29,967 bases of DNA, taken from NCBI GenBank assembly GCA_030065635.1, contig JASJDJ010000056.1:1-29967 (forward strand), written 5' to 3'. Of this stretch, positions 1 through 19,715 are shown piece after piece. The stretch comes from Xenococcaceae cyanobacterium MO_188.B32 (GTDB taxonomy: Bacteria; Cyanobacteriota; Cyanobacteriia; Cyanobacteriales; Xenococcaceae). The notes beneath the pieces were generated by a model that saw only the letters and a list, made by a program, of their open reading frames with translations, searched no databases and was not told the DNA's origin. A program made the translations under genes and the position numbers. Every line of letters starts with the position of its first letter. Position 1 is the first letter of the stretch.

Positions 1-701
1 CTACTATTCAGTCAGATTTGGATATACCCGACCCATTGCCTCACGGTCACTGTATTGGGTTAGACGTGGGTTTGTTATCCTATTGTGCGACAAGTGATGG
101 TTTTGTTGAACCTGGACGTAAATTTTTCAAGACGCTGTACCGTCGGCTGAAAGTGCTACAAAGCAGACTGTCTAAAAAACAAAAACGCTCCAAGAACTAC
201 GAAAAAGCCAGAAAAAAAGTAGAAGCAATGCACAATCATATTGCCTTCAAGCGTAAAGATTACCAGTTCAAGCTTGCTCATAAACTCTGTGATATGGCAG
301 ATACTATCTTTGTAGAAGATATAGACTTTCGTATCATGGCTAAAGGGTTTCTAGGCAAGCATACGGTTGATGCTGGATTCGGTCAGTTTCGTTCTCTTCT
401 CAAATATGTAGGTAAACGACGCAATGTCTTTGTGGCAGAAGTTGACCACAGAGGCAGTAGTCAGACTTGTCCTAACTGTCGCATTTCTGTCAAGAAGGAG
501 TTAGAGGATAGAGTCCACTCATGTCCTGAGTGTTTGTATGAAACCGACAGAGATATCGCATCGGCTCAAGAACTGTGTAATCGAGGCATAGAAATGCTTA
601 GTACCCAAGGGCTTTGGGGGAAAGAAATAGGCTGTCAAGTCGGGCTGTCGGGGGCATTTTGCCTAGATAAGTGGCGCGGGGCAGCAAAGTCTCTAGCGTG
701 A
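1..701 (+). CDS. tnpB: IS200/IS605-family TnpB (OrfB) RNA-guided endonuclease, C-terminal part. The reading frame is open to the window edge, so the N-terminus lies outside the window.
   Basis: RuvC-I motif GLDVGL, RuvC-II IFVEDI, zinc finger CPNCR...CPEC, RuvC-III DRDIASAQ. Stop codon at 699-701. No in-frame stop between position 1 and the listed ORF start at 18. Confidence 0.8.
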   Translation, partial: TIQSDLDIPDPLPHGHCIGLDVGLLSYCATSDGFVEPGRKFFKTLYRRLKVLQSRLSKKQKRSKNYEKARKKVEAMHNHIAFKRKDYQFKLAHKLCDMADTIFVEDIDFRIMAKGFLGKHTVDAGFGQFRSLLKYVGKRRNVFVAEVDHRGSSQTCPNCRISVKKELEDRVHSCPECLYETDRDIASAQELCNRGIEMLSTQGLWGKEIGCQVGLSGAFCLDKWRGAAKSLA

Positions 702-773
702 GCTGGAGAAGCCCGCTCTCTATCCAAAGGATGAGAGTCGGGAGTAGTCACTTTTAAATTTAATTCTGCTTCG
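560..773 (+). ncRNA. Putative TnpB omega-RNA (right-end RNA): 3' end of tnpB plus the IS right end, with terminal hairpin 712-742 and a possible guide of about 20 nt at 754-773. Boundaries are approximate.
   Basis: Hairpin cccgCTCTCTATCCaaaGGATGAGAGtcggg lies just after the tnpB stop. The same hairpin and the flanking motif ...tcgggagYagtcact recur in the inverted copy at 12612-12662. Sequence diverges from that copy exactly after ...agtcact at 753, which marks the element end. Confidence 0.3.
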
Positions 774-12611: not shown

Positions 12612-12895
12612 AGTGACTGCTCCCGACGCTCTATCCGTAGGATGAGCGCGGGCTTCTCTAACTCACGCTAGAGATTTTGCTGCCCCGCGCCACTTATCTA
12701 GGCAAAATGCCCCCGACAGCCCGACTTGACAGCCTATTTCTTTCCCCCAAAGTCCTTGGGTACTAAGCATTTCTATACCTCGATTACACAGTTCTTGAGC
12801 CGATGCAATATCTCTGTCAGTTTCGTATAGACACTCAGGACAGGAGTGGATTCTATCCTCTAGTTCTTTCCCTACACTTTGGATTTGTCGTAAAC
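12612..12895 (-). pseudogene. tnpB: Second copy of the IS200/IS605 element, right end (12612-12662) plus the last ~70 codons of tnpB only. It is inverted and truncated by the adjacent MITE-like element.
   Basis: The reverse complement is about 90% identical to 500-753, reading ...LEDRIHSCPECLYETDRDIASAQELCNRGIEMLSTQGLWGKEIGCQVGLSGAFCLDKWRGAAKSLA*. The hairpin 12622-12652 is conserved. The right end abuts the stop of the AstE-family gene. Confidence 0.8.
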
Positions 12896-14914: not shown

Positions 14915-15053
14915 CAGTTTTATGAATTAAAGTATTTACAATTGAATAGAATTCCTTTCCCCAAACAGAAAAAAGAAGTTGCTGAATTGGCGATCGCGAG
15001 TCAGAATTTATCTTAGACCTCTTGCATAAGTCTCATAGACCTCGGTTAAGTTG

Positions 15054-15506: not shown

Positions 15507-16181
15507 ATGATTCGGATTGCAGTATATCAATCTAACTCGATCGCGACCGCTGGTTTAGTTAGCATCCTCTCTCGTTTTAGCGAGACTTGCACTTGTCAAA
15601 ACAACCTCGAAAGGTGTCCTCGCTCCGATTTACAAATAGTGGGGAGTTTTGACGATGAAACTAGTCTAATATCGATGAGCGATCGCGCTTTCGATTTATT
15701 GCTACTAGAGCGAATGCCTGAAGAGGATTTGTGGTGGTTAGAGCGATGGATGTTAACAGTAGATTTTGAGATTGCAGGAATTTTATTAACTGATTCGATA
15801 GCTACTGAAGAGATAGGTGAATATCTTAGTTTGGGTTTTAAGGCTTTTTTACCTCGTCTGACCAATATTGAAGAAATTATTGCTACGATCGATGCTGTCA
15901 TGGCTGGTTTAATTGTAATTCATCCAGAGTTAGGATGTTTTGAAGAAAGGGATTCGGCAATTACTCCAGAACCTCAATCGGCAATTTATTTAACTTCTAG
16001 AGAATTAGAAGTATTGCAGTTACTCGGGGCTGGTTTAAATAATAAGGCGATCGCCTCACGACTTCAAATATCCAAACATACAGTTAAATTTCACATCAGT
16101 TCAATTCTATCTAAGCTTTGTGTATCCAGTCGCACCGAAGCGGTTACATTGGGATTGCGACAGGGACTAATTAGGCTTTAA
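15507..16181 (+). CDS. LuxR-family transcriptional regulator with an atypical (pseudo-)receiver domain.
   Basis: C-terminal HTH LTSRELEVLQLLGAGLNNKAIASRLQISKHTVKFHISSILSKL. N-terminus IRIAVYQSN lacks the acidic pair. LLLLERMPEE has Glu where the phospho-acceptor Asp is expected. Confidence 0.75.
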   Translation: MIRIAVYQSNSIATAGLVSILSRFSETCTCQNNLERCPRSDLQIVGSFDDETSLISMSDRAFDLLLLERMPEEDLWWLERWMLTVDFEIAGILLTDSIATEEIGEYLSLGFKAFLPRLTNIEEIIATIDAVMAGLIVIHPELGCFEERDSAITPEPQSAIYLTSRELEVLQLLGAGLNNKAIASRLQISKHTVKFHISSILSKLCVSSRTEAVTLGLRQGLIRL

Positions 16182-16393
16182 TCATCTGTGACAAGTTAAG
16201 AAACTACGTTGTTTGTCAATAGCGTGATTGGACATGGCGAAAAAGCACAAATCAGTGATGTTATAAATTTAAAATGAAAGCTAGATTTATTCATGGGTAG
16301 TTCAAATGGATATTTAGTCGTAATTACAACTCATCTGTAACACTAGTTGAAAAATCATTCGACTCAGTTATAGGATGAATTAAACCCAGAAAG

Positions 16394-16654
16394 ATGAAGA
16401 CAATTCTGATCCTATCAGCTAACCCTAAAGGAACATTTAGTCTGGAGCTCGATCGAGAGATTCGCGACATCCGAGAAGCAGTGGACAAGCAGGGTTCAGA
16501 TTATCAAGTCAAATCTAGAGTGGCTGTCCGACGCAAAGACTTGGAATCTGCCTTGCTCAATAAAAAATCATCAGATCTTTTAAAATTATTCTCGGTCAGG
16601 ATTTTTCATTTATTAACGATCGCTTGTGCAATACGGCTAAGCTATTACCATTAG
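16394..16654 (+). pseudogene. Degraded 5' remnant of a caspase-like (CHAT-type) effector domain gene.
   Basis: MKTILILSANPKGTFSLELDREIRDIREAV...RVAVRRKDLESALL matches the conserved start of cyanobacterial caspase-like domains (ILILAANPKDT..LRLDEEVREI...VHFSGHG). The His motif region is garbled and the frame stops. There is no downstream continuation. Confidence 0.45.
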
Positions 16655-16864
16655 TTCCTCTAGTAGAAGGAATGGAATCTGTAAGCAGCAGACTGGCAAA
16701 TGTTCAAAAATTTCAGGAGGGAATTAGTTCTTTAAAAGAACTGAAAGATCGCTTAATCCCACATTCATCAGCCCCCTTTATGTAATAAAACAGATTACGC
16801 CATTTAGAGGGTTTGGCGTACGCTATTTTCTCTTGGCGATCGCGCTTGGCGTAATTACCGCCAA

Positions 16865-17128
16865 TTGGCGATCGCCAAATCAAAGTTCTCCCTTTTTGGC
16901 GATCGCGCTCTTTGTGATCTACTGAAAGTAGGTTCTCTTGACAGTCGCGGACTGGCTAGGGCTTTAACAGGAAATATTCAAGGAGCGATCGATGACTTTC
17001 AAGAGTATGTTAAGTCTCCTCACAGAGCGGAAAGGTATAAAAGCAAGCGTCAACAATGGATTGAGGCTCTTAAAAAGGGAGAAAATCCGTTTACCGATGA
17101 GGTTTTAGAGGATTTGAAGAATGAGTGA
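16865..17128 (+). CDS. Hypothetical 87-aa ORF, possibly a C-terminal relic of the degraded gene upstream. Its coding status is uncertain.
   Basis: It begins inside a cluster of three extended HIP1 sites. The C-terminal half ...RQQWIEALKKGENPFTDEVLEDL looks protein-like. Confidence 0.25.
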   Translation: MAIAKSKFSLFGDRALCDLLKVGSLDSRGLARALTGNIQGAIDDFQEYVKSPHRAERYKSKRQQWIEALKKGENPFTDEVLEDLKNE

Positions 17129-17416
17129 CTACTAATCTCGTCGTGATTTCAGTTTGCTCCCACACCTTCCCAAACTGAGTCAGATAAACTTTAGACAGCT
17201 TTAATCACTGACTAATTTTTTACCATTGGAGACAGAGGAAAATACTATCTAAAATGGAGGAAGAGGACTCCCGACTAAACCGACGTAGTCGGTTAGCGGG
17301 AGACGGGGCTTTTAAAGTGCTTAAGTAAATTCAGCACGCAGCCCCTCATGAATTCCGACAAAAAAACAAACGGCGAGAGTCGTCAATAAGTAAACATGGC
17401 TAGATAATCGATAATC

Positions 17417-17683
17417 ATGAATCGCGCTATCAAACCAGTCCTCGGAACAATTTCTCTGTTTGGTTTAATTTTGACTGTCCTGGTGCTACAAGCTGGAGGA
17501 TGGAATAATTTTAAACTGCGCTATTTTCATCTAACTAGCTATTTTCACAGCCAAGAGCGAGAGTTAGAAGATATTCGCGCTGATAATCTCAATCCAGTTG
17601 AATCTAGCCGTATCGATCTATCGGAACTACTCAATGTCGCGCTGATAATACCCTCTACTCTCAACCTTGGGGGATGGGCATAG
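17417..17683 (+). CDS. Hypothetical small protein with one N-terminal TM helix. Its coding status is uncertain.
   Basis: 88-aa ORF whose composition looks natural. It lies in an otherwise ORF-poor region. Confidence 0.25.
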   Translation: MNRAIKPVLGTISLFGLILTVLVLQAGGWNNFKLRYFHLTSYFHSQERELEDIRADNLNPVESSRIDLSELLNVALIIPSTLNLGGWA

Positions 17684-18698
17684 TCGGTAAAGCAGTCAAT
17701 TCCCATCTCGTTAGAATTCCCGCATTCAAAACTACTCTGGGCAATTGGTTAAAACAATACCCTGATAGTCAAATTTTAGCTTGGCGAGTGGGAAGCCCCG
17801 CTCCTTGTCGCTCTGCGACAGGAGTCGGGATGAAAACGAGCGCGACAACTTATCGGTCATCGGTTGACAATTTTGAGACAAAATCTTTATGGAACAAGGA
17901 TTCTGGTCGTTGTATAATACATTTGAGCGTATCAATGGGTCGCTAGCTACCGAAGATCGGATAAACAAAAACCTAAAGCTAGCAAGCACCTTGACAATCA
18001 AACATATGGGGTTGCAACCAAAAAATAGTCTCGGTTGGGGACTCGGTGGTTGCGTAAAATGTTTGCCGTACAAAGGAAGCATTTTTAAAACTGTACCCAG
18101 GGACGCTGGGGAATGGAAACTGCCTGCTGACAGCGTACTGTCGGAGATGCATGATGCTTGCATTGTTCATCTAGATAAGTGCTACGCAGGAATACCTAGG
18201 TCGTGAGTCTAGGGAAGCCAGCACCTTATCCGTTAGGATAGGTGTATGGAGAACGTCACCAACAGATACGGGCTACAACCGTGATTATCAACGCTATCCC
18301 TATGGGACTTATTATACGGATGAGCGAATTATTTTCCCCGTTCGCAACCAACGCAATCTAAAATATCATCCCAAAACCATTGTTAGTTACATCTGGGAAA
18401 CGGATACTCAAACACCAAAGAATCAGTTTTCTGGTGCAAGCACTCGATTTAACCACGGGCAACTACAACAAATTGGCGAAAAAATAGTCGAATTTAATGG
18501 TCGTCAAATTAAAGCATATTGGGATAAACAACTAGAAACCGTCGTCGTGACAGAAATGGACGGTACAATTATTCGCAGTTCGACAGCTTTTGCTTTTGTT
18601 TATCCTGCTTACTTCGAGCGATAAAATTCGTTTTACACAAACCGCTTCCTCTCTCATATTTACCAGGGCTATTTCATTCTCAGCAGCCAGATAATAAA

Positions 18699-19448
18699 TT
18701 ATCTGTCTAAGTGTACTAAGTCGTCTTTTTTGTTCCAGTCACTCAATATATCTTTTATCAAAACTTCTTCAATCCATACTCGGGCGACAACCGCTAGTGG
18801 TAATGCTAAAAATAAACCAATAAAACCGAAAAAGACGGCAAAAGTAGCTTGTGCTAGTAAGGTAACTGCTGGCAGCAAAGAAACCTGCCGTTTCATAACT
18901 AAAGGAGTAAGAATGTTACTCTCAGCCTGTTGAATTAAAATATAAAGTATTAGCACCGCCACCGCTTTCCAGGGTGCATCACTCAAAGCTAGAACTATTG
19001 GCGGGATACAGCTTATAGTAGGACCTAAATTGGGTATAAAAGTTAACAAGCCAGCTAAAAGTGCATTAGCCAAAGGAACTTGCACTTGCAAAATTGATAA
19101 ACCCAGCCAGCTAAGAATGGTAATAACTAGCATATTAAACAGAATTCCCCGAGTCCAACCGACTAAAGCTATTTCACATTTTTTGAGAATTCTGGCAGCA
19201 CGACGACGATAGAAGGAAGGGAAGAAAACTAAAAACAAACGTATATAGGGACGAGGGTTAGCTAGTAACATAATCATGACTACCGTAACCAGAAGTATAT
19301 TTAAAATAACTCCTAGCGAACCCGAAAAAATATCATAAAAATTACCTACAAGCTGAGTTGCCACGCTAGGTAAATTACGAGTAATATTTTCTAGCTTTTG
19401 AATTTCTCCTACTAGCTGTTCGGGAACTTTCTTTTGTAACCACATCAA
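18699..19448 (-). CDS. AI-2E family transporter (UPF0118/PerM-like). The short form of 249 aa appears to lack the usual N-terminal ~100 aa.
   Basis: The C-terminal two-thirds show the AI-2E pattern (...LLTFIPNLGPTISCIPPIVLAL...). TTG start. The upstream frame is open, but it is not hydrophobic. Confidence 0.65.
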   Translation of the reverse strand: MMWLQKKVPEQLVGEIQKLENITRNLPSVATQLVGNFYDIFSGSLGVILNILLVTVVMIMLLANPRPYIRLFLVFFPSFYRRRAARILKKCEIALVGWTRGILFNMLVITILSWLGLSILQVQVPLANALLAGLLTFIPNLGPTISCIPPIVLALSDAPWKAVAVLILYILIQQAESNILTPLVMKRQVSLLPAVTLLAQATFAVFFGFIGLFLALPLAVVARVWIEEVLIKDILSDWNKKDDLVHLDR

Positions 19449-19715
19449 CCAAACTTCTATTTTGTCTACTGCTTGAGGTAATAGCTCGAGCGATTGCTGG
19501 TTAATTGGACTATTGTTGTTAGGAGTAACTTTCGGTTCGGGATGGATTAATCGTCTACCCCTTTCTTATGCCCTAATTTATTTAACTTAAGTTGCCTGCT
19601 TAACTTCTCATCTTGACTGGTAAAAACATGGTAGTCGCTGCAAACTAAAAGTATGAACTAGAAATTTTTTTTTTTTCTCAGTCTAAATTCGCTCGACATT
19701 AGAAGAGGTTATGAT

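Follow-up and report, generated by a model that had tools for sequence, protein, structure and literature searches.

A protein-less IS200/IS605-type element with a conserved structured RNA among apparent pseudogenes of a Xenococcaceae cyanobacterium

Palindrome-associated transposable elements (PATEs) were first named in Haloquadratum, and PATE-like elements bearing omega RNAs have been noted in Geobacillus stearothermophilus (PMC10055086); such elements "often encode omega RNAs" to be used in trans by the TnpB proteins of other elements (Meers et al., PMC10055086). Here we describe the interval 16182-18698 of a 29,967-nt stretch of DNA (the window) from a metagenome-assembled genome (MAG), that of the Xenococcaceae cyanobacterium MO_188.B32, in which a gene of the DUF3179 family is interrupted by a 480-nt element of PATE type carrying a conserved structured RNA. 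An earlier reading of the letters alone, referred to below as the original prediction, had seen in these 2.5 kb either the wreck of a large conflict-system gene or the host of one or more non-coding RNAs. We conclude that the interval is neither a single wrecked gene nor a dedicated RNA locus; it contains three pseudogenes or gene remnants and two small mobile insertions and is mostly ordinary decay. We judge it likely that the whole reflects recent decay of the genome in a cyanobacterium with abundant IS200/IS605 elements.

The 480-nt element resembles the known PATEs in being non-coding, in having hairpins near its ends rather than inverted repeats, in its insertion beside a motif without target duplication, in sharing its right end with tnpB-bearing elements, and in an omega-like RNA for which TnpB would have to be supplied in trans. 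It differs from them in that its family is of Pleurocapsales type, with the motif TTAG(C), the right terminus GTCAC, a conserved extended −10 of its own and an added, very conserved 5′ RNA domain of ~165 nt that is absent beside tnpB. Like the omega RNA (reRNA) of IS605-family elements such as ISDra2 (PDB 8EXA, 8H1J), the present RNA is structured, ends at the right end of its element and is directed toward the flank, and its 3′ ~170 nt are homologous to sequence downstream of tnpB in the same genome; unlike that RNA it does not overlap tnpB, has a putative promoter of its own, is longer (~335 nt) and has no Rfam family, and its activity is a prediction. The cyanobacterial MITE (miniature inverted-repeat transposable element) Nezha, as far as it is summarised in PMC3184786 (Zhou et al. 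2008), has terminal inverted repeats and flanking direct repeats; to the extent of that summary, it and the 480-nt element are alike in being small, non-coding, structured, recently mobile and found by comparison of filled and empty sites, and differ in that the 480-nt element has neither kind of repeat. IStrons (bioRxiv 10.1101/2023.11.20.567912) are likewise IS605-type elements that have a structured RNA and may be located within genes, whereas the present element has no group I intron core or splice-site features and nothing indicates splicing. Protein-less omega-RNA PATEs are a kind already known; the present cyanobacterial family is not in Rfam.

The NCBI annotation of the interval consists of three short "hypothetical proteins" of 86, 87 and 88 aa (MDJ0689526-528). 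The 90% cluster of the 88-aa fragment includes a 339-aa protein, and by way of it we found contig L006, which is syntenic with the window in its genes for a peptidase M28, a methyltransferase, a GerE regulator and a DUF3179 protein, the last intact and 339 aa long. The two sequences are 97-100% identical over their shared segments, and positions 17172-18662 are collinear with the L006 DUF3179 locus; the contigs of the nearest named DUF3179 homologs (L001, L002) showed no synteny with the window. The comparison divided this part of the interval as follows.

17249-17386, plus strand: 138-nt insertion, absent from L006 (where 5648 and 5649 are contiguous), with flanks 98.7-99.2% identical.
17417-17636, plus strand: DUF3179 pseudogene part 1, codons 1-73, signal/TM region, with its ATG at 17417; 99.2% identical to L006 5649-5898; found by tblastn of P0001.
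17637-17780, plus strand: DUF3179 pseudogene part 2, codons 171-219; 100% identical to L006 6191-6334; profile positions 101-149.
17781-18260, plus strand: 480-nt non-autonomous IS200/IS605-type element (PATE), at DUF3179 codon 219, after TTAGC.
17781-17829, plus strand: left end of the element, 16 nt TTGGCGAGTGGGAAGC and then an imperfect hairpin at 17797-17829, a layout kept in all full copies.
17911-17918, plus strand: extended −10 sequence TGTATAAT, 6 nt upstream of the conserved RNA start.
17925-18090, plus strand: 5′ domain of the RNA, PATE-specific and the most conserved part of the element, its helices with compensatory changes.
18091-18259, plus strand: 3′ domain of the RNA, an omega-RNA-like scaffold that includes the right end, with a box GTCGTGAGTCTAGGGAAGCC at 18200-18219, a hairpin at 18220-18245 and GGAGAACGTCAC at 18248-18259.
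18261-18624, plus strand: DUF3179 pseudogene part 3, codons 219/220-339 and the stop; 97.5% identical to L006 6334-6739; tblastn 83% identity.

A DUF3179 gene, recently inactivated, takes up over half of the region (17417-18624). Pfam DUF3179 (PF11376) matched two same-frame fragments, scoring 37.2 and 53.2 bits where the cut-off is 27, profile positions 101-149 falling on 17608-17943 and 149-235 on 18175-18621, so that the fragments abut at position 149. Intact homologs are 338-346 aa long, the best of them 82% identical, and the window holds no uninterrupted gene of ~340 codons. The short open reading frames (ORFs) that the original prediction took to be without family resemblance are these DUF3179 pieces, together with the tail of a TPR/WD40 protein, and its start-less open frame consists of the last 120 codons of DUF3179, the source of the 53-bit match. 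Three lesions separate the window allele from that of L006. First, 138 nt are inserted precisely at 17249-17386, which places them 30 nt upstream of the start codon. Second, 292 nt (L006 5899-6190) have been lost between 17636 and 17637, and with them codons 74-171, including YCPLC, so that the frame is shifted. Third, 480 nt are inserted precisely in codon 219 (17781-18260). The gene pieces on either side match the intact allele at 99-100% identity, from which we conclude that all three lesions are recent. It had been foreseen that an intact gene of the same sequence in a relative would show the frames of the window to have been misread; L006 does have the intact gene, but without the deletion and the two insertions, and the frames were read correctly and are as described. 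The 292-nt deletion has its right junction within the HIP1-like palindrome CGATCGCG, and a breakpoint at window position 15015, described below, likewise adjoins a HIP1 site.

The ends of the 480-nt element were given by the filled and empty sites. The empty site in L006 reads TTTTAGC followed directly by AACAGAT, and the filled site reads TTTTAGC, then the 480 nt, then AACAGAT, without target duplication; the boundary is ambiguous by 1 nt, 17780-18259 being equally possible, and the target motif is hence TTAG or TTAGC. Related DNA was first recovered with translations of the insert, by way of six spurious ORFs that had been called on such DNA, and the contigs of these six carried element copies 76-87% identical beside unrelated genes. 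Further copies were sought with a 21-nt degenerate pattern from the element core, run on species-representative genomes and on metagenome and viral contigs. The pattern gave 11 true copies in 8 GTDB species-representative genomes of Pleurocapsales/Prochloraceae-type cyanobacteria (Xenococcus, other Xenococcaceae, Waterburya, Pleurocapsales LEGE 06147, Prochloraceae and unclassified cyanobacteria) and matched 44 stretches of metagenome contigs, many of them at contig ends; it matched none of the viral contigs. The family totals ~60 copies at many unrelated sites. TTAGC preceded 42 of 45 left ends and GTCAC closed 31 of 33 right ends, with diverse flanks at both. The hairpins lie close to the boundaries, that of the left end 16 nt inside and that of the right end (18220-18245) 14 nt from the boundary and followed by GGAGAACGTCAC; at both ends a box GAG..GGAAGCC comes first and then the imperfect hairpin, and the hairpins are conserved and co-varying across copies. 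Terminal inverted repeats were not found in the 480-nt element, neither tnpA nor tnpB was found inside any of the ~60 copies, and the internal ORFs had no match in Pfam.

As the insert has a 5′ target motif, no duplication of it, hairpins near both ends and no protein gene, we concluded that its architecture is that of a PATE; its ends are, in addition, common with those of a tnpB-bearing element. From this architecture we infer that the element was moved as single-stranded DNA by a Y1 TnpA encoded elsewhere. A classical MITE was considered and dropped, as neither terminal inverted repeats nor flanking direct repeats are present at either insertion.

The original prediction had also pointed to a promoter-like ttgaca...tataat in this part of the interval. 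TTGACA (17864-17869) and TATAAT (17913-17918) are 43 nt apart, do not form a sigma-70 pair and were not listed by the promoter scan; TATAAT does, however, lie within the family-conserved extended −10 TGTATAAT, of which TTGACA is not the −35. In 54 distinct copies the spacing of this extended −10 is constant, also in those whose upstream sequence diverges. Just downstream of TATAAT is a conserved structured RNA of ~335 nt (17925-18259, plus strand), and to that extent the idea of a non-coding RNA host was right, but the RNA is part of a mobile element that lies in DUF3179. The RNAalifold consensus contains 85 pairs, and at 35 of these there are compensatory double changes. Paired cells amounted to 96.4%, as against 33-41% when the partners were slid by 1-3 columns, and 0 of 500 shuffles reached any observed measure. 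The alignment folded at −141.9 on the plus strand and at −125.8 on the minus strand, with many conserved G-U pairs on the plus strand, and substitutions were without codon periodicity, the three phases having 30, 32 and 28 variable columns. We concluded from the covariation, the strand energies and G-U pairs, the absence of codon periodicity and the conserved −10 that the element contains an RNA gene on the plus strand which would read out through the right end. The mean column entropy was 0.31 in the 5′ domain compared with 0.60 in the 3′ domain.

A link to TnpB came from an nhmmer search with a profile of this RNA, which matched just 3′ of tnpB at two places in the window, 599-747 (plus strand, E = 7e-10) and 12617-12765 (minus strand, E = 3e-10), and also at 2896-2993 of contig L014 (E = 4e-7), directly 3′ of a complete tnpB. 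The homology covered profile positions 167-352 only; positions 1-166, the 5′ domain, failed to match. In the alignment the PATE 3′ domain (18091-18259) and the tnpB-linked regions have common helices and boxes, with compensatory differences. The two regions of the window are the following.

3-752, plus strand: truncated tnpB (C-terminal 232 aa, 3-701) with predicted omega RNA and right end, ending GGGAGTAGTCAC at 752.
12612-12870, minus strand: second partial tnpB 3′ end with predicted omega RNA and right end, in inverted repeat with 494-752.

The TnpB remnant at the start of the window matched Pfam OrfB_IS605 and the Cas12f1-like TNB domain and aligned to residues 181-367 of ISDra2 TnpB; its 3′ region runs through GCGTGAGCTGGAGAAGCC, a hairpin and GGGAGTAGTCAC to the end at 752. 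The hairpin core CTTATCCGT(T)AGGATAG (CTTATCCGTAGGATAG) is common to the PATE right end and to the left end of the TnpB remnant, the latter seen in contig L026. There the left-end hairpin is fused directly to mid-tnpB, indicating that the TnpB element underwent an internal deletion. Comparison of L026 with contig L027 yielded no cleanly readable target motif for this TnpB element, which is internally deleted within a complex 1433-nt block. The block, L026 6210-7642 (from the window start to 1394), is a 1433-nt insertion relative to L027, where 2134 adjoins 2135, and it sits within an apparent DnaK/HSP70 fragment. The two tnpB-linked regions form a 259-nt inverted repeat, with arms 494-752 (plus) and 12612-12870 (minus) that are 90% complementary and bracket 11.9 kb; the arms could mediate inversion of the intervening 11.9-kb segment.

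Two properties expected of an omega RNA were found: the structure runs to GTCAC at 18259, with predicted transcription toward the flank, and homologous sequence lies downstream of tnpB. A tnpB ORF overlapping the RNA was absent in the ~60 copies, and a trans arrangement must be assumed. We propose that the RNA is probably a trans-acting omega RNA, on the grounds of this homology and structure. In the proposed mechanism, the RNA would be transcribed as an omega RNA (reRNA) out through the right end, the 3′ flank (here AACAGATACGGGCTACAACC... of DUF3179, after 18260) would become the guide, and TnpB supplied in trans would cut empty sites adjacent to TTAG(C); homologous repair of the cut would then restore or spread the element, as in IS605-family elements (PMC10055086). 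A literature search on TTAGC as a target-adjacent motif gave nothing relevant.

Several tnpB elements were met beside copies of the family. In contig L069 (148-196 and 427-1700) an IS607-like element with a serine-recombinase fragment and a 400-aa TnpB interrupts a PATE copy, of whose RNA only the first 33 nt remain; we considered this as the parent insertion sequence and dropped it, the PATE having been truncated by the IS607-like insertion. The right end of the IS607-like element finishes GGGAGTATGTCAC, and because of this agreement we take the terminal motif to be common across TnpB lineages. Contig L014 (1600-4260) has a complete tnpB element (396 aa) inserted within another tnpB gene; its right end reads GTCGTGAGTCTTTGGAATCC, a hairpin and GGGAGGATGTCAAC, and its flank (…TTCATC before the junction) points to another target motif. 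The tnpB genes of L066 and L014 were considered as parts of the PATE and rejected, as they belong to separate elements.

A number of observations weigh against the proposal of a trans-acting omega RNA in a PATE. The 5′ ~165 nt of the RNA, although the most conserved, have no counterpart beside any tnpB examined, and there are variants of the family with another 5′ module (L007 2523-3270, plus strand) or a reduced one (L054 ~250-591, plus strand), all of which points to an RNA that is not just the residue of an omega RNA. The RNA matched no Rfam family even at E ≤ 10. Each representative genome had only 1-2 pattern matches, a Y1 tnpA was not seen in any sequence examined, and the tnpB copies on this contig are all truncated, a working partner in the genome being our assumption. 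The promoter use and the ends of the RNA are themselves predicted. In both variants the promoter and the omega-like 3′ domain are the same as in the other copies, and in L007 the ends are the same as well, which suggests that the RNA is assembled from exchangeable modules.

These observations bear on a different proposal, that the RNA is cargo with a cellular or selfish function of its own, for example as a trans-acting small RNA, a self-protecting or processing RNA, or a decoy for TnpB, with the IS200/IS605 ends a mere vehicle and the omega-like 3′ part vestigial. The better conservation of the 5′ domain relative to both the omega-like 3′ domain and the element ends, the putative promoter, the absence of the 5′ domain beside tnpB genes, its exchange or reduction in L007 and L054, and the low number of matches per representative genome all agree with a cargo RNA. 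A vestigial 3′ part agrees poorly, however, with helices in the 3′ domain that are also kept by compensatory changes and with the extension of this domain exactly to the right-end boundary, as is required of a guide-RNA scaffold; moreover, neither a target nor a function was identified for the 5′ domain, and it had no Rfam match. We therefore consider the cargo RNA improbable and prefer the trans-acting omega RNA. A little less improbable, and offered tentatively, is that the promoter-driven, nearly invariant, covarying and swappable 5′ domain constitutes a new functional RNA module fused to the omega-RNA scaffold; if so, the module might recruit, stabilise or process the guide RNA, letting a protein-less element parasitise TnpB, or it might instead be a cargo RNA with its own function. 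We also considered whether the 480 nt are an interruption that is excised, either from the RNA as a group I or II intron or an IStron-like element, or from the protein as an intein, so that DUF3179 would still be functional. The length of exactly 480 nt (160 codons), the position between well-conserved residues and the highly structured sequence would suit such an interruption, but Intron_gpI and Intron_gpII were unmatched even at E ≤ 10, and the boundaries (C, then TTGG...CACC, then A) lack a U before a 5′ splice site, a terminal G and the pattern GUGYG...AY. Stop codons within the frame rule out an intein, the other copies are mostly intergenic, and the DUF3179 gene additionally carries the frameshifting 292-nt deletion; excision is, in our view, extremely improbable.

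The 138-nt insertion upstream of the DUF3179 start codon contains the two adjacent strong hairpins to which the original prediction had drawn attention, and these are real (17268-17302 and 17303-17346; −48.4 kcal/mol for a 140-nt segment, z = −4.6). Its order is a 19-nt leader, the hairpin at 17268-17302, a 44-nt nested hairpin at 17303-17346, ATGAATTCCGAC... and a terminus ...GAGAGTCGTCAA. The layout of a box, a hairpin, the 44-nt unit and ATGA... mirrors the left end of PATE copies, for example that in L017, to which positions 42-102 of the insertion are 74% identical, and the terminus resembles GAGAACGTCAC. We propose that the insertion is probably a miniature PATE relative with a different target motif (flank ending ...ACTAT). 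That no other copies were found in the sequences examined counts against this assignment, which is made from the architecture. As candidates for a non-coding RNA the paired hairpins fared poorly: they lie within an insertion that is absent from the closest relative, L006, and are part of a mobile-type insertion, not a conserved leader or small RNA. Relatives of the 44-nt unit were found in L006 (8047-8090 and 8114-8157), L008, L010/L040, L017, L022 and L042. The dispersed family follows the pattern ACGGGGC-KTWWAAR-[stem/loop/stem]-RACAGCCCCT, in which the outer stem GGGGC/GCCCC is constant and the inner stem of 8-9 bp differs from copy to copy, being self-complementary in most. The units are often nested in PATE copies, just 3′ of the left-end hairpin.

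Upstream of the DUF3179 locus, the 989-nt block 16183-17171 has no counterpart in L006, which has there 538 unrelated nt with an EndoIII-like ORF. It contains the following features.

16394-16567, plus strand: remnant of a CHAT gene, N-terminal 58 codons, ending before the catalytic His/Cys region.
16564-16758, plus strand: second piece of the CHAT gene, in another frame; aa 361-425 of P0206, 66% identity, E = 3e-24 (tblastn).
16814-17128, plus strand: remnant of the TPR tail of a WD40/TPR-type protein, its 5′ part degenerate.
16836-16906, no strand assigned: three HIP1 sites (TTGGCGATCGC) within the degenerate 5′ part of the TPR remnant.

A caspase/CHAT-type start at 16394-16654 had been recognised from the sequence, and this was borne out. 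Residues 1-58 of the 86-aa ORF at these positions, and only these, matched 140 representative CHAT-type proteins (E ≤ 1e-3); Pfam CHAT was above threshold in 9 of the 10 top matches, where it occurs alongside WD40, STAND NTPase, GUN4 and further domains, and had no match on the 86-aa ORF itself. The match to the domain start is thus not accompanied by the catalytic His/Cys part of CHAT in an intact ORF. A tblastn comparison, which had been proposed as a way of detecting frameshifted remnants, did so: the best homolog, P0206 (550 aa), matched two pieces in two frames, its residues 3-58 corresponding to 16397-16564 with 70% identity. Between the pieces ~0.9 kb (aa 59-360), the catalytic part included, is deleted, and aa 426-550 (~125 codons) are also gone. 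The 87-aa ORF corresponds to the tail end of TPR/WD40 proteins; by tblastn 16814-17128 matched the C-terminal 60-100 residues of proteins P0121-P0149, which are of WD40/TPR or short TPR type, with 50-73% identity, and Pfam TPR_9 matched weakly. P0206 lacks a tail of this kind, and the TPR piece is therefore a second, independent remnant. Both the CHAT and the TPR remnant are older. The HIP1 sites GCGATCGC start at 16836, 16868 and 16899, and the cluster described in the original prediction is real, but its perfect palindrome is of 14 bp rather than 16 (TTGGCGATCGCCAA, 16865-16878), base 16879 being A. There are 28 HIP1 sites in the window, and a triplet within 71 nt is only marginally unusual (~0.06 by our own Poisson estimate).

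The leading idea of the original prediction, that the whole 2.5 kb is one wrecked CHAT/STAND/TPR conflict-system gene, can be judged against these remnants. A CHAT start and a TPR tail are typical of large cyanobacterial CHAT/WD40/TPR proteins, and here they lie 250 nt apart on the same strand; a wrecked CHAT gene is indeed present, but it covers 16394-16785 only, on the model of a 550-aa protein. P0206 explains 16397-16564 and 16564-16758 without a TPR tail, the sequence from 17172 to 18662 is collinear with the L006 DUF3179 locus, and the block holding both remnants is without a counterpart there, all of which makes a single wreck very improbable. Another explanation, that the disruptions are artefacts of assembly or binning, draws on the origin of the window in a MAG and on the location of many copies of the element family at contig ends. 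The junctions relative to L006 are, however, clean to the base, and the interval, with the identical lesions, is present at 99.7-100% identity in contigs L003, L004, L005 and L026, from four other assemblies or samples; because the lesion-bearing sequence recurs in this way we exclude an artefact of assembly, and we give artefacts of either kind practically no weight. Recent decay accompanied by mobile insertions is thus the account that we retain.

Other breakpoints and repeats were seen around the interval. A three-way breakpoint lies between window positions 15015 and 15016, just after a HIP1 site at 14990-14997: L006 continues there with two trypsin-like protease genes, almost wholly missing from the window, and L003, 99.7% identical downstream of the breakpoint, has chemotaxis genes upstream. 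A further 476 nt of L006 are missing from the window near ~15485. Collinearity with L006 ends between 18662 and 18663, where L006 has a MerR gene. The ORF for an AI-2E transporter at 18699-19565 (minus strand) lacks the first ~80 profile positions and is probably another truncated gene. A short motif, GCGGTCTTGGGGGTTTCCCCCATGAGC, recurs in unrelated contexts (L007 4440-4540, minus strand; L014 ~2840-2880; window ~1290-1330) and may be another small dispersed repeat. Scans for tRNA and tmRNA found none. The Rfam scan that had been proposed for this region found no family there: searches at gathering thresholds on the whole window and at E ≤ 10 on 16150-18750 gave only noise. NCBIfam had no match on the ORF fragments, and the sole blastn match of the region among the PLSDB plasmids was a DUF3179 gene on a Pseudanabaena plasmid.

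For the annotation of this genome, the 2.5-kb stretch of "hypothetical proteins" (MDJ0689526-528 and uncalled ORFs) becomes three pseudogenes and two mobile insertions. The filled and empty sites, in a pair of relatives 97-100% identical, are the record of a DUF3179 gene very recently destroyed by three independent lesions. The element family now has exact ends, a TTAG(C) motif, a putative promoter and a covariation-supported secondary structure; with cultured carriers in existence, it is a compact natural case for the study of omega RNAs in trans and of the role of the extra 5′ domain.

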